A stretch of 64,000 nucleotides of DNA. Origin: Thermoprotei archaeon (GTDB lineage Archaea; Thermoproteota; Thermoprotei; Gearchaeales; WAQG01). The position numbers and the translations under genes were made by a program. This document shows positions 3,827-64,000 of the stretch, one piece after another (position 1 is the stretch's first letter; every line of letters starts with the position of its first letter). Where the stretch lies: assembly GCA_049976445.1 (NCBI GenBank), contig JBMFIF010000001.1, positions 24,634 to 88,633 on the forward strand. The letters are read 5' to 3'. The notes beneath the pieces were generated by a model that was given only the letters and a program-made list of their open reading frames with translations, had not been told where the DNA came from and searched no databases.

Positions 3827-3845
3827 TTCTTCTATATTATTAAGG

Positions 3846-3938
3846 GGGCCGTAGTCTAGTTTGGTCTAGGAAGTTTAAAAAACCTAGAGTACCAGGCTCG
3901 GGCCCTGGAGATCGCCGGTTCAAATCCGGCCGGCCCCA
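3846..3938 (+). tRNA. tRNA-Pro (anticodon CGG) with an ~18-nt non-canonical intron in the D-stem 3' strand
   Basis: Acceptor is GGGGCCG/CGGCCCC plus discriminator A, followed by U8. D-arm is GUCU-AGUUUGGUCUA-GGAU once the intron AGUUUAAAAAACCUAGAG is removed. Anticodon arm is CCAGG-CUCGGGC-CCUGG (CGG). Variable loop is AGAUC and the T-arm is GCCGG-UUCAAAU-CCGGC. The intron forms a CUAGG...CCUAG hairpin across the junction. No CCA is encoded. Confidence 0.75.
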
Positions 3939-4031
3939 CTATATTAATGGTCGTCAGCAGCTCAATTAATCTAATTAAGAACAGGTTTCTCTAAGTAGTA
4001 GGACTTATATATTTTTTAAACGATAAATAAC

Positions 4032-5867: not shown

Positions 5868-5944
5868 AAAATTAACATAAACTTTTTTTATTACTTTTAT
5901 GATATAATGAAAAATCATAAAAATTACTCAAGGAACCGTTTCGT

Positions 5945-6255
5945 CCCCCGAATTTATTCATAGAGATGAAGGACTCTAAAAACTATTATGAGAGGATCCC
6001 TCCACCTCCAGGTCTGCGCCCGGTAAGATTTTCCCTCGCTAATGCCCACAGAGCTTAAGCCTAATACTGGGCGTGGCATTGAGTAGTTCCGGCCGCAGGA
6101 GTCCATACTAAGGAGACATACATACGTGCTTCTAAGCTCTGTGGGCATAACCTAGTGAGCTGTTTTTGGCTCCTGGTTGTAGCTAGTCGGCCTTTGCATC
6201 GATACCATTATCCTAAGCTTTCGACTGAAGTCAGGAGCGTCTGACTTGTTTAGGA
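5945..6255. ncRNA. GC-rich (~50% GC) structured non-coding island of unknown identity; candidate stable RNA (RNase P RNA or another ~300-nt RNA); strand unresolved
   Basis: GC content rises sharply against the AT-rich background. A long imperfect helix pairs 6043-6059 (GCCCACAGAGCUUAAG) with 6129-6148 (CUUcUAAGCUCUGUGGGC) and encloses about 70 nt. A perfect 7-bp hairpin AAGUCAG-GAGCGU-CUGACUU lies at about 6228-6248. TATA-like boxes are present on both flanks. The only overlapping ORF (5954-6148) is weak. Confidence 0.35.
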
Positions 6256-6267
6256 ATTTTATAATAG

Positions 6268-6383
6268 TGGGGCCGCGGGGAGTTTCACCCTTTTCAGGGT
6301 TTTGAACCCCGGATCACCAGCGTTCCGGGAATAGGGGTATTCACCCCAGGCTGGCATCCTAATCCAGGCTGAACGACGGCCCC
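6268..6383 (-). tRNA. tRNA-Pro (anticodon GGG) with two introns: a canonical 37/38 intron (21 nt) and a T-loop 59/60 intron (19 nt)
   Basis: The minus-strand RNA reads as follows. Acceptor GGGGCCG, then U8 C9. D-arm GUUC-AGCCUGGAUUA-GGAU, then G26. Anticodon stem CCAGC / loop CUGGGG[UGAAUACCCCUAUUCCCGGAA]C / stem GCUGG. Variable loop UGAUC. T-stem CGGGG, T-loop UUCAAA[ACCCUGAAAAGGGUGAAAC]U, T-stem CCCCG. Acceptor 3' strand CGGCCCC plus discriminator A. After intron removal every arm is canonical. The D-arm and anticodon loop are closely related to the tRNA-Pro(CGG) at 3846. Confidence 0.7.
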
Positions 6384-60928: not shown

Positions 60929-62020
60929 TTATATTAACGTTATGCTTTTGAAATTACCCTCTTTAACAAGAATTGGCCCTGCATCTGGTAGTCTTATCCA
61001 ATAATATCCTGCTTCTACTGCATTGTATTTCTTGGTGAGTGGTATTTTTTCGTTAAATGCTAATTTGATATAGATCCATGGCATATTACAACCTAAATGT
61101 GCATAAAAGTTATTTGTTGTATAAAATCTTCCTGCATTTATTTCTGTTACTGATGGTATGCCATTTTTGTTAGCTTTCATATCAACACCGAATACTCCAT
61201 TAGGTTTATCATCAATTGCTTTTATTGCTTCTGTTCCTATTTTATTCACTAGTTCATTATGAACAGTTACTGCAACCGATGGTGTTGATGTTTGCCCACT
61301 TGGTGTAATGTTCCCAAATAGGTATTCTATTCTTTTTCTTGCCTGTGAGACTATCAGCTCTCCATCTTTCCAAATGCTTTGAAAAGCAAATTCTTCGCCA
61401 GGAAGATATTCAGATATCATAAAATCTTCGTATACTAAGCCTTCCTTTTTATTCCAATAATTTATCCATTCTATAATCTGTTCTGGAGAATAAGCAGGTA
61501 ATGATGCTCTTGATCCTGCTCCTTTTAATGCTCTAACCCAAACTCTGCCTTTTTCATCCTTTAATTCATTGTAATATTTTTTTATAGAACTCACATCTTC
61601 AATTTTATAAGAGATCGGTGCTGGAACATTCTTATTTTTAAGTATTTGATTTGTCTTGATCTTATTTTGAGTTGTTTCGATTGTTTCATGTTTTGGTAAA
61701 AATGTTTTCGCGTCGATTTTCTCTCTATTCTTGGATATCATGAACACTTCAATATCTGGTTGTGCGTGCACAAATTCTATTTTCTCCATGTGAATTAATT
61801 TATTTACTACGTCTAAGTATCTTGAATCTGTTGCTTTTGGTATGATATAAGATTTATCAGCATCAACTAGTTCTAAATGATATTTGTTAATATCTGTTGC
61901 TACAATGTAAAACTTCTCAGTAGCCATTCTTAATGATTTTATAAAGTTGATTCCTGCAGATCCTCCTGCACCTAATACAAGGATGCGCTTTTCCATACTA
62001 TGAACACTCCCTATATTCAT
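60929..62020 (-). CDS. ATP-grasp domain protein (carboxylate-amine ligase-like), function unknown
   Basis: The N-terminal Rossmann-like pre-ATP-grasp (ILVLGAGGSAGINFI) and a central ATP-grasp fold are present. Confidence 0.45.
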   Translation of the reverse strand: MNIGSVHSMEKRILVLGAGGSAGINFIKSLRMATEKFYIVATDINKYHLELVDADKSYIIPKATDSRYLDVVNKLIHMEKIEFVHAQPDIEVFMISKNREKIDAKTFLPKHETIETTQNKIKTNQILKNKNVPAPISYKIEDVSSIKKYYNELKDEKGRVWVRALKGAGSRASLPAYSPEQIIEWINYWNKKEGLVYEDFMISEYLPGEEFAFQSIWKDGELIVSQARKRIEYLFGNITPSGQTSTPSVAVTVHNELVNKIGTEAIKAIDDKPNGVFGVDMKANKNGIPSVTEINAGRFYTTNNFYAHLGCNMPWIYIKLAFNEKIPLTKKYNAVEAGYYWIRLPDAGPILVKEGNFKSITLI

Positions 62021-62087: not shown

Positions 62088-62380
62088 TAAATCTGGGGTT
62101 CGGGTTTCATTGGGCTTGATATCAAGCTATATCAAGCCCTCTCCCTTGGCATCATAGCCCTCAGGACCCCTTTTCATCGGGATCCATATCACTGGGCTCC
62201 GCCCGCCCGGGGTGACCCCAACCCACAACTCCACCCTCATCGATTCCTCCGGTTCATAGCTGTGGGGAAACCCCCGCATCCTGGCTTTCGAATGTGCGCC
62301 CCACTTGGGTCTTCACCACATACCCGCATTTGGGACGCTCTCTTGCATCACCGTGCTTCAATAAAGGAACTAAATCAACC
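62088..62380 (+). ncRNA. GC-rich (~55% GC) structured RNA candidate, ~290 nt, unknown identity (possible RNase P RNA-like or novel stable RNA)
   Basis: There is no ORF in this region. An abrupt GC island sits in AT-rich context. A perfect 11-bp hairpin GGGCUUGAUAU-CAAGCU-AUAUCAAGCCC is present, plus a GGGGAAACCCC hairpin and a GGGGUGACCCC hairpin. Short RNase-P-like strings (GGGCUCC ... GGGUGA ... AACUCCACCC) occur, but the P4 consensus GGAAAGUCCGGGC is absent. An upstream TATA box sits at the correct spacing. Confidence 0.35.
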
Positions 62381-62663
62381 CTTATAAACCTTTCTGAAAC
62401 CTAAAACAGCTCCAGAGAGGCTTATCCTTGCATTGAGATTATAACGTTTTTAATTATAGAAATTAAGATTGTTCCTTCCTTTTTAAAAGTTCAATGCACT
62501 ATTTCATTAAACTGTTCATAAAGGTCACCCAAGGAGACCTCCAACTTTATTCGTGGAGTAACTGCCTTATTCTAGAGTAGTCTTTGTATGTCATGTAAGG
62601 TTTAAGTATTCTGTTCTATAAGTAGTTGTGTAAGAAAATTTTATCATGAAAAGCTGAGACTAC

Positions 62664-64000
62664 CTATTCTAGTGTAAATTTTGCTATAGCGGTTTTTTCT
62701 TTTATCTTAAAACTGTGTTTTATTCCATTTATTAAAATGTTTTCTATGCCAGATCCATTTAAAATATGTAATTCAATATTTTTGAAAGAGGGTTTATAGT
62801 TTTTGTTTAAAATTTCAGTATCGACTATAATTTCGTTGTTATCTCGAATAATTTCTACTTCGGCTTCGAAATATTCCCCTTTCTGATATTTCAATGTTTC
62901 ACCATCGTCATCATATACTCGTGTCTTTACTTTCTTAGTAATGAATGTTTCGATTTTAATTGGATCCCAGGGTTCGTATGCATTTTCTTTAGGATCAGTT
63001 GTAAGTATTGCTGTATTTTCTCTAATAAAGATTGGTATTATTTCAAGAGAAGCTTTAACTAAATTCCAGCCATGGTTAAGTATTTCTCCGTCCCAGTAAT
63101 CATACCATTTGACTTCTGGTAAATATACAGCTCTAGCTTTAATGCCTGGAGCTAATATTGGTGCTATTAGAAGAGCTTCTCCTAGCATGAACTCATCGTC
63201 TATGTCATAGCAATTTTCATCGGAAGGAAATTCGGTTGAAAGTGTTCTCATTATAGGAAGACCTGTTCTGTGCGCATCTATAAAAAGTCTGTAGATATAA
63301 GGAAGTAGTTTATATCTAAATTTAATAGTGTTTTTAATTATTGTCTCGAATGGTTCTCCAAAAACCCATGGTTCATGCCTTCTAGCATTAATATCACTAT
63401 GATTTCGGTAAAAAGGATAAAACGCTCCTAATTGGTGCCATCTGACCAAAAGTTCTGGATCAGTATCATCGCTAAACCCTCCAACATCAGCTCCCACAAA
63501 AGGTATACCTGAAAGACCTAAGCTAAGAAGTTGAGGAATGCTAATTTCCATATGTCCCCAATCTGCTTGATTATCTCCTGTCCAGACTGCTGCAAATTTT
63601 TGAATCCCTGCAAATCCTGATCTAGAAAGTATGAACGTCCTTTTATCTTCATATACTTTTTTGAATCCTTCATATGTGGCCAAATTTTCTAGAAGCGAGT
63701 ATGCATTATGTATCTCATCGTGATGGATCATATTTCCTTCATCATCTTTATGTATAGCATTTATTTTTATGTATCCAACGTTTTTATTAACCATAGCTGT
63801 TGATATTTTTGAAATTTCTGAAATAATGTTTAAACCTACATTTCCATTACCGCTAATGATACTTGGTAATTGTTCGATAATATCTTTTAATGGGTCTATC
63901 ATTAGAAATATTGAAGGCTCATTCATATCAAGCCAAATTCCATCAATACCTTGTTTAATCCATCTAGCTATGTATGACGACCATAACTTTCTTACTTCTG
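62664..64000 (-). CDS. malA: Alpha-glucosidase, glycoside hydrolase family 31 (MalA-like); N-terminal part lies beyond the window
   Basis: GH31 motifs are present: GIWLDMNEPS (nucleophile Asp, continuing upstream of the listed Met) and AVWTGDNQADWGHM. The reading frame stays open to the window edge. Confidence 0.8.
   Translation of the reverse strand, partial: EVRKLWSSYIARWIKQGIDGIWLDMNEPSIFLMIDPLKDIIEQLPSIISGNGNVGLNIISEISKISTAMVNKNVGYIKINAIHKDDEGNMIHHDEIHNAYSLLENLATYEGFKKVYEDKRTFILSRSGFAGIQKFAAVWTGDNQADWGHMEISIPQLLSLGLSGIPFVGADVGGFSDDTDPELLVRWHQLGAFYPFYRNHSDINARRHEPWVFGEPFETIIKNTIKFRYKLLPYIYRLFIDAHRTGLPIMRTLSTEFPSDENCYDIDDEFMLGEALLIAPILAPGIKARAVYLPEVKWYDYWDGEILNHGWNLVKASLEIIPIFIRENTAILTTDPKENAYEPWDPIKIETFITKKVKTRVYDDDGETLKYQKGEYFEAEVEIIRDNNEIIVDTEILNKNYKPSFKNIELHILNGSGIENILINGIKHSFKIKEKTAIAKFTLE

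Follow-up and report, generated by a model that had tools for sequence, protein, structure and literature searches.

The stretch of DNA analysed here, in the following called the window, comprises 64,000 nucleotides (nt) from a Thermoprotei archaeon (assembly GCA_049976445.1, contig JBMFIF010000001.1, positions 24,634 to 88,633 of the forward strand). At JGI it corresponds to metagenome contig Ga0395593_059659. The nearest named relatives of the host are Desulfurococcaceae/Thermogladius-like members of the Thermoproteota. Within the window a GC-rich island of about 300 nt is located 22 nt downstream of a tRNA-Pro(GGG) gene, in the same orientation and between the tRNA and an oligo-T terminator. 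This island is very probably an insertion sequence of the IS200/IS605 family, of the ISC1/IsrB type, which has become protein-less through an internal deletion and extends over 327 nt from 6245 to 5919 on the minus strand. Its non-coding part is an omega RNA, the guide RNA of the nuclease IsrB. In the direction of the minus strand the locus contains the following features:

6268..6383, minus strand: tRNA-Pro(GGG) gene (ARAGORN call on the spliced 76-nt sequence; discriminator A at 6268)
6246..6267, minus strand: 22-nt spacer CUAUUAUAAAAUUCCUAAACAA between the tRNA 3' end and the scaffold, read from the sequence; guide position of the omega RNA
6023..6245, minus strand: core of the omega RNA scaffold, HEARO-type (RF02033 match, nhmmer profile, consensus pairs)
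5978..6022, minus strand: 3' part of the omega RNA (aligns with the 3' regions of the IsrB loci L052 and L061: AGACCTGGAGG, AATAG)
5971..5977, minus strand: AGAGTCC, start of isrB (alignment with L052 and L061; R-V-P codons in L052)
5919..5970, minus strand: the other transposon end (pairwise alignment), called "left end" in the convention of Meers, the right end bounding the omega RNA
5915..5918, minus strand: ATGA target site or target-adjacent motif (TAM; TCAT on the plus strand), abutting the element end
5910..5914, minus strand: T5 run beyond the insertion, read from the sequence; probable original tRNA-Pro terminator

The island had been noticed in a sequence-only reading, which described a jump in GC content to about 50% in a genome of about 33% GC, no credible open reading frame (ORF), a long-range helix closing a multi-hairpin domain, a local hairpin AAGUCAG-GAGCGU-CUGACUU and a neighbouring tRNA-Pro(GGG) gene. 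All of these observations hold. In 200-nt windows between 5900 and 6400 the island has a GC content of 0.455–0.525, against about 0.28–0.36 in the flanks. Only two ORFs of at least 30 amino acids (aa) are found inside it, one of 64 aa at 5954..6148 on the minus strand and one of 30 aa at 5966..6058 on the plus strand. The former, the one of the two that was scanned, had no match in Pfam and overlaps conserved RNA stems; at IsrB loci, gene callers likewise over-extend ORFs into the omega RNAs. The long-range helix corresponds to an inverted repeat with arms of 26 nt (6032–6057 and 6133–6158, complementarity 85%). Its core is a perfect 12-bp stem (6146–6135 with 6055–6044), ten pairs of which belong to the consensus described below, and which encloses three hairpins, the stem-loops (SL) SL4, SL5 and SL6. 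The local hairpin is present at 6229–6248, and the tRNA is real. The strand of the RNA, which the earlier reading had left undecided, is the minus strand, the same as that of the tRNA. The folding energy is only weakly unusual (z = -1.8 for the minus and z = -2.9 for the plus strand) and does not carry the case; we judge the structure to be real because it is supported by homologs.

Homology to HEARO RNAs and the RNA scaffold

Rfam was searched over the 64-kb window at the gathering thresholds first, where no match was obtained, and then with E-value reporting. Under the latter setting HEARO (RF02033) matched at 6245..6023 on the minus strand over model positions 1–211 of 211, with 45.9 bits (E = 3.1e-8 in a search of a 601-nt region, 3.3e-6 in the search of the window). 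No other structured-RNA family matched in the island. The transposon-encoded nucleases IscB and IsrB use HEARO as their omega RNA (PMC10055086). Models for signal recognition particle (SRP) RNA (RF01857) and RNase P RNA (RF00373) gave no match in the region, neither at the gathering threshold nor at E ≤ 10, in agreement with the earlier statement that the island is neither of the two. The proposal of a structured non-coding RNA locus is likewise borne out, namely by homology to HEARO/IscB-IsrB omega RNA. The sequence-only reading had also pointed to Rfam as the place where a known family might turn up and overturn it; in substance such a match now exists, with a score under the gathering threshold.

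Since 45.9 bits is far under the curated gathering score of 83 bits, independent support was sought. A degenerate pattern, made from the positions common to the island and the HEARO consensus, found six HEARO RNAs in viral contigs; these are of the canonical bacterial/phage type and are distant relatives only. A pattern biased to the island sequence yielded three metagenome loci in which such an RNA precedes an ORF that starts with ...PLMPCKPAKARKLL. The ORF of locus L051 contains the Pfam domain RRXRR (PF14239, E = 5e-44), and an HNH domain was detected neither by Pfam nor by inspection; therefore, we take this protein as IsrB. Its family has 2,684 members at E ≤ 1e-5, and all named homologs are archaeal (Methanomethylicaceae, Promethearchaeota, Borrarchaeum, Njordarchaeota).

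From the RNAs upstream of isrB at eight distinct archaeal loci an nhmmer profile was built, with the island sequence left out. This profile had a single match in the window, at 6245..6018 on the minus strand (E = 4e-28). The island RNA reached 93.6 bits, the training RNAs 178–217 bits and the bacterial/viral HEARO RNAs 24–45 bits. Because of this intermediate score we place the island RNA in the archaeal IsrB subfamily as a divergent member; its identity to the archaeal IsrB-linked RNAs is 53–64%. The two nearest omega RNAs are those of L052, from a Methanomethylicaceae metagenome-assembled genome (MAG; GCA_049970435.1), with 64% and of L072 with 63% identity. The end of the L052 element is also the best-aligning one among the four compared to the island. 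At another of the IsrB loci, L053 (863-1876, 1814-2056), the start of the element, omega RNA included, falls within the 3' end of a TnpB-like gene (Cas12f1-like_TNB); judging from the sequence, this looks like the insertion of an OMEGA element into another one.

The following parts of the scaffold and of the 3' region were assigned in the island RNA:

6245-6239/6192-6186, minus strand: P1
6236-6219, minus strand: SL1
6218-6196, minus strand: SL2
6183-6181/6040-6038, minus strand: stem
6178-6149, minus strand: SL3
6146-6135/6055-6044, minus strand: long stem
6129-6095, minus strand: SL4
6094-6075, minus strand: SL5
6072-6058, minus strand: SL6
6209-6204 with 6087-6082, minus strand: putative adaptor pseudoknot (loop complementarity)
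6114-6110 with about 6036-6031, minus strand: putative nexus pseudoknot (loop complementarity)
6023-6008, minus strand: hairpin CCGGG-CGCAGA-CCUGG (minimum free energy, MFE, fold)
6003-5991, minus strand: hairpin GGAGG-GAU-CCUCU (MFE fold)
5982-5978, minus strand: T5 run following the 3' hairpins, a likely archaeal termination signal

The consensus structure was evaluated on an alignment of nine sequences, the eight archaeal IsrB-linked RNAs and the island copy. Standard pairs occupy 93.2% of the cells, compared to 30–43% when the 3' partners are slid, and 35 out of 66 pairs are changed on both sides, i.e. compensatory, compared to 7–10 when slid. None of 500 shuffles reached the observed values. 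The two putative pseudoknots were assigned by loop complementarity; 94–96% of their cells are paired, without covariation. The island RNA keeps 50 of the 57 nested consensus pairs, the IsrB-linked copies 49–57. Pairing is complete in the long stem (10/10), the 66–68/215–217 stem (3/3), SL3 (4/4) and SL5 (4/4), nearly so in SL4 (9/10), and reduced in P1 (5/7) and SL1 (5/7).

Among the 83 columns invariant in the eight linked RNAs the island keeps 68 (82%), against 92–100% for the linked RNAs themselves in a leave-one-out comparison; at variable columns it agrees with the majority in 50%. Thus, conserved positions were preferentially retained. Fourteen of the 15 changes at invariant columns are from GC to AT, the direction expected in a genome of 33% GC. 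Six of the 15 constitute three private compensated pairs (68/215, C-G to U-A; 72/99, G-C to A-U; 130/144, G-C to U-A), and others preserve pairing in the putative pseudoknots, with one pair lost in the adaptor pseudoknot. From this we conclude that, in the line leading to the island, the structure was long maintained by selection within AT-rich genomes.

The 5' domain is different. In all eight linked RNAs the canonical junction of P1, SL1 and SL2 is the MFE fold, with -15 to -27 kcal/mol. For the island this fold has -8.4 kcal/mol and an alternative of -12.6 kcal/mol is preferred, in which the 5' strand of P1 pairs with the 5' strand of SL1. This is the AAGUCAG/CUGACUU hairpin with its perfect 7-bp stem. 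Judged by these predicted folds, the guide-proximal 5' domain (P1/SL1) is eroded, while the GC-rich core still folds.

The likeness to HEARO RF02033 consists in a full-length covariance-model match on the expected strand, a variable flank at the guide position before GTCA, a GUC...GAC P1, a long central stem, a CAC...AUG...AGU...CUG hairpin and the ...GCGAGG motif. The island differs from this family by scoring 45.9 instead of 83 bits, by the lack of a following iscB/isrB ORF and by its eroded 5' domain, and it is nearer to the archaeal IsrB subfamily than to bacterial/viral HEARO RNAs. In overall architecture it also resembles the complex of DtIsrB with its omega RNA (Hirano et al. 2022, PMC9581776): there, too, several helices form a globular scaffold that includes an adaptor and a nexus pseudoknot, of which the island has putative counterparts. 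A TAM of the NTGA type 3' of the target and a 5' guide of about 20 nt are further common features.

Element ends, target site and distribution

The homology to IsrB elements continues beyond the RNA. After AGAGTCC, about 7 nt of the isrB start, an ORF of approximately 1 kb is missing and the homology resumes at 5970. The opposite end carries the following features:

5963-5946, minus strand: putative subterminal hairpin CUAUGAA-UAAA-UUCGGGG (6/7 pairs; 21/28 identical to the L052 end hairpin)
5935-5919, minus strand: terminus TTCCTTGAGTAATTTTT, containing TCCTTG plus 10 nt, then ATGA

In L052 the counterpart of the hairpin is CCACGAC-UAAA-GUCGGG. The island sequence TTCATCTCTATGAATAAATTCGGGGGAC aligns with the L052 end TTCCTCTCCACGACTAAAGTCGGGAGTC, followed by TCCTTG, 10 nt and ATGA. 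All eight IsrB elements have a CCTTG-like motif and then ATGA, with a gap of 10–11 nt in seven of them and a variant motif in L071, and ATGA is found directly outside the element end at 8/8 loci. ISC1 (IsrB) transposons are known to start with 5'-GTCA and to use N|ATGA as target (PMC4810608), and DtIsrB cleaves at ATGA/TTGA TAMs (PMC9581776). The element of the window starts with GTCAG at 6245 and has its opposite end at 5919, followed by ATGA at 5918–5915. By alignment, the 327-nt element consists of the GTCA end, a complete omega RNA gene, two to three isrB codons and the last approximately 50 nt. The end-to-end alignment with IsrB elements accounts for the whole island.

No co-oriented iscB/isrB ORF, as would be expected of a member of the HEARO family, lies directly downstream of the omega RNA. 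A tblastn search with IsrB over the 64-kb window found no coding remnant of isrB, and a scan of 34 ORFs of the window found no transposase, TnpB or IscB; all were ordinary metabolic or transport genes. In comparison with the ISC1 elements of Kapitonov, Makarova & Koonin 2016 (PMC4810608), the island shares the 5'-GTCA, the insertion at N|ATGA without target duplication and the absence of tnpA inside the element, and at the other end it has a putative counterpart of the subterminal hairpin. It differs by its length of 327 nt only, with the IsrB ORF (RRXRR/PLMP and split RuvC, no HNH) deleted, and by its host, a thermophilic archaeon of the Thermoproteota. Protein-less derivatives of IS200/IS605 elements such as palindrome-associated transposable elements (PATEs; PMC4810608) are similarly short and ORF-less with both ends kept. 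Unlike PATEs, the island carries a full IsrB-type omega RNA and sits in a tRNA trailer, with one full copy in 64 kb.

A 99%-identical strain (L077, NCBI MAG GCA_049970455.1) has this element too, longer by a single T. The accession of this MAG neighbours that of L052; a common study or community of origin is conceivable and would be in keeping with horizontal spread. A species-level relative, L073 on contig CAZTNQ010000015.1, with 86% identity in the PNGase-like protein and the same gene order, keeps the tRNA-Pro(GGG) gene and its promoter box. Its intergenic region has 243 nt versus 616 nt in the window, about 60 nt separate the tRNA from the PNGase gene, and no element sequence is found there. 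Judged by this alignment, L073 would represent an empty site; the evidence is strong but not conclusive. No copy of the RNA was found at 14 related, more distant archaeal loci, which share synteny via an ECH/3HCDH gene; the synteny ends there, with neither the tRNA nor the RNA beyond. On one contig of related Thermoproteota (L004, 40-944) we noted a CRISPR array of about 15 repeats upstream of beta-oxidation genes, with a weak match to Rfam CRISPR-DR45.

The window contains a further trace of the element family:

62516..62575, minus strand: second, solo element-end relic (nhmmer with the end profile, E = 2.4e-5, only match in the window)

It reads CTCCA-CGAATAAAGT-TGGAG as a hairpin, then GTCTCCTTGGGTGA, 5 nt and ATGA (62575–62516), and is by eye about 79% identical to the end of the Methanomethylicaceae element L052. 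Neither an omega RNA nor an ORF was found alongside 62516–62575. A full copy and a solo end are thus present in the 64-kb window, and from this second relic we conclude that the lineage was exposed to the IsrB element family more than once.

Another GC-rich island of about 300 nt is located at 62100–62400, between an ATP-grasp gene (60929-62020, minus strand) and a GH31 gene (62664-63926, minus strand). Its minus strand is G-rich and folds with -119 kcal/mol (z = -3.1). One of its hairpins, GGGCUUGAUAU-AGCUUG-AUAUCAAGCCC, is perfect, and GAUGA/UGA motifs resembling those of K-turns are present as well. Rfam gave no match to this island, permissive settings included.

The tRNA-Pro(GGG) gene and transcription of the island

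The tRNA-Pro(GGG) gene has two introns, one at 37/38 (6343–6323) and one in the T-loop at 59/60 (6300–6282). Because of these ARAGORN misses the unspliced gene and calls tRNA-Pro(ggg) once both are removed. A BRE/TATA-like promoter (BRE, B recognition element) AAAAGTTAAATAC is present at about 6420–6408; gene and promoter box are kept in L073 and L077. The T-loop intron (6282-6300) is shared by the window and the 99%-identical strain and is not found in the orthologous tRNA of the 86% relative L073 (4935-4950), so that its gain or loss must be recent; between the window and L073 there is also a 5-nt indel in the 37/38 intron. A second candidate at 3845–3941 on the plus strand is called tRNA-Phe(aaa) by ARAGORN and has a weak Rfam match to tmRNA. 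By eye it is a tRNA-Pro(CGG), with the anticodon loop CUCGGGC and an insert of approximately 19 nt between D arm and anticodon stem. If so, two intron-containing tRNA-Pro genes would flank the PNGase-like gene.

Between the tRNA and the island there is no oligo-T, and both have the same orientation. For these reasons we infer that the island is transcribed as part of the tRNA trailer, which makes the earlier suggestion of a 3' trailer co-transcribed with the tRNA probable. The first T5 runs after the tRNA are those at 5982–5978, past the 3' hairpins of the RNA, and at 5914–5910. The latter is probably the original tRNA-Pro terminator, displaced by 327 nt; in L073 T-runs occur at the equivalent place past the tRNA. 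Most likely, then, the omega RNA would be made within the tRNA-Pro primary transcript and freed by tRNA 3' processing. A TATA-like box TTATAAAA in the spacer (6264–6257) was considered as an internal promoter and rejected: transcription from it would start inside P1, and co-transcription with the tRNA is therefore preferred.

Transcription of the omega RNA in an intact element starts beyond the transposon end, and in this way the flank becomes the guide (PMC10055086; PMC9581776). IsrB then nicks the empty donor site, recognized by its guide match and the TAM, and the nick promotes recovery of the element (PMC10055086; PMC9581776). In the eight IsrB loci the sequences 5' of GTCA are unrelated to each other, as guides should be, and the guide of DtIsrB has 20 nt (PMC9581776). 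Applied to the window, an element would have inserted at N|ATGA, 22 nt past tRNA-Pro(GGG) and ahead of the oligo-T terminator. The tRNA-Pro primary transcript would then carry the omega RNA, tRNA 3' processing would free it, and the freed RNA would bear the 22-nt spacer as guide. With an intact counterpart of the element, IsrB would be directed to nick the empty donor site, made up of the spacer sequence plus ATGA, and the element would be restored by recombination.

Present state and significance of the element

Several points weigh against the interpretation as a deleted IsrB element and a relic. The HEARO score stays below the gathering score. A profile hidden Markov model of the eight element ends found no match at 5970–5919; because it missed this copy, that end was assigned by pairwise alignment together with the TCCTTG-N10-ATGA spacing. 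In L073 a run of 10 N stands exactly at the element site, so that absence is unproven there. The search for an IsrB or TnpA partner spans the visible 64 kb of the genome only, and transcription, processing and termination are deduced from the sequence alone. Finally, the precise retention of the non-coding parts, the 50% GC within a genome of 33% GC and the compensated pairs would also fit an element on which selection still acts.

Could the island be a housekeeping RNA of this lineage, such as a divergent SRP or RNase P RNA, or a novel stable RNA, as had been suggested? A GC-rich structured island adjoining a tRNA in the AT-rich genome of a thermophile is what one might expect of it. This is very improbable all the same and not supported by our results: the RNA family is already described, with clear homology to IsrB omega RNAs, the island is flanked by ISC1/IsrB ends and the N|ATGA target, SRP or RNase P models do not match at permissive thresholds, and the RNA was found in none of the 14 related archaeal loci and is apparently absent from the syntenic site of L073. 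Transfer RNA genes are common integration targets in archaea. A scar of a virus or plasmid att site, or a small protein gene, would fit the tRNA location or the existing 64-aa ORF (5954..6148, minus strand), respectively. We give these two the least credit of all: there is neither a duplicated tRNA segment nor an integrase, the ORF lacks a Pfam match and overlaps conserved stems, and the IsrB element explains the whole island.

The remaining alternatives accept the IsrB origin and concern its present state. The element might still be active, as a PATE-like non-autonomous element moved over its 327 nt by a Y1 transposase in trans, and/or as a standalone omega RNA serving an IsrB encoded at another locus of the genome, whose ribonucleoprotein would nick the empty tRNA-Pro trailer site and so restore the element. 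In favour of this, the deletion is clean: the ORF alone is gone, while the two ends, the entire omega RNA and the target were kept. The core structure has suffered no more than that of the IsrB-linked copies, with substitutions compensated, and the spacer of 22 nt is close to the 20-nt DtIsrB guide (PMC9581776). Protein-less IS605-type derivatives (PATEs) are known (PMC4810608), standalone omega RNAs reported to work with IscB in trans are mentioned in PMC9581776, which cites Altae-Tran 2021 for them, and the window contains another relic of the family. On the other hand, P1/SL1 beside the guide is mispaired, the alternative hairpin sequestering the 5' strand of P1; one pair is lost in the adaptor pseudoknot, pseudoknots being essential in DtIsrB (PMC9581776); IsrB, TnpA and TnpB were not found in 64 kb; and the window has a single copy. 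We therefore regard an active element as a tentative, rather unlikely possibility. A former omega RNA with a new role independent of IsrB, be it in stabilising or processing the tRNA-Pro transcript, as a decoy or in regulation, appears quite improbable. The GC content and core helices kept in an AT-rich genome with compensated substitutions, the predicted obligatory co-transcription with an essential tRNA and the remodelled 5' hairpin with its perfect 7-bp stem would suit such an exaptation, but the RNA is known from one species-level lineage only (the window and the 99% strain), and its changes fit plain drift from GC to AT.

With no protein partner found, the 5' domain eroded and the drift almost wholly from GC to AT, we lean, with some reserve, towards a hitch-hiking, slowly decaying relic that would have lost its function. 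It is doubtful, if conceivable, that an ORF-less omega RNA is expressed constitutively, receives a 22-nt guide by the cut of RNase Z and acts in trans with an IsrB encoded at another locus or, independently of IsrB, in an exapted role in this lineage of hyperthermophiles. Were this true, the guide defined by RNase Z would be a natural counterpart of the engineered fusions between tRNA and guide RNA.

A structured RNA that had escaped identification is now assigned to the OMEGA/IsrB guide RNAs of the Cas9 ancestor. No new category of biology is opened hereby: the RNA system was already known, and the new aspects are modest, namely the host lineage, the location in a tRNA trailer and an Rfam threshold that misses the archaeal IsrB-type subfamily. 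An Rfam scan at the gathering threshold thus overlooks archaeal IsrB-type omega RNAs. The gene-less copy and the solo end document the transposon family in the genome of a thermophilic member of the Thermoproteota. The position in the tRNA trailer would guarantee transcription, in line with what is known of these elements, which tend to profit from read-through. Together with the island, the eight archaeal IsrB loci provide a covarying alignment, from which an improved covariance model for compact, thermophilic nickase systems could be started.

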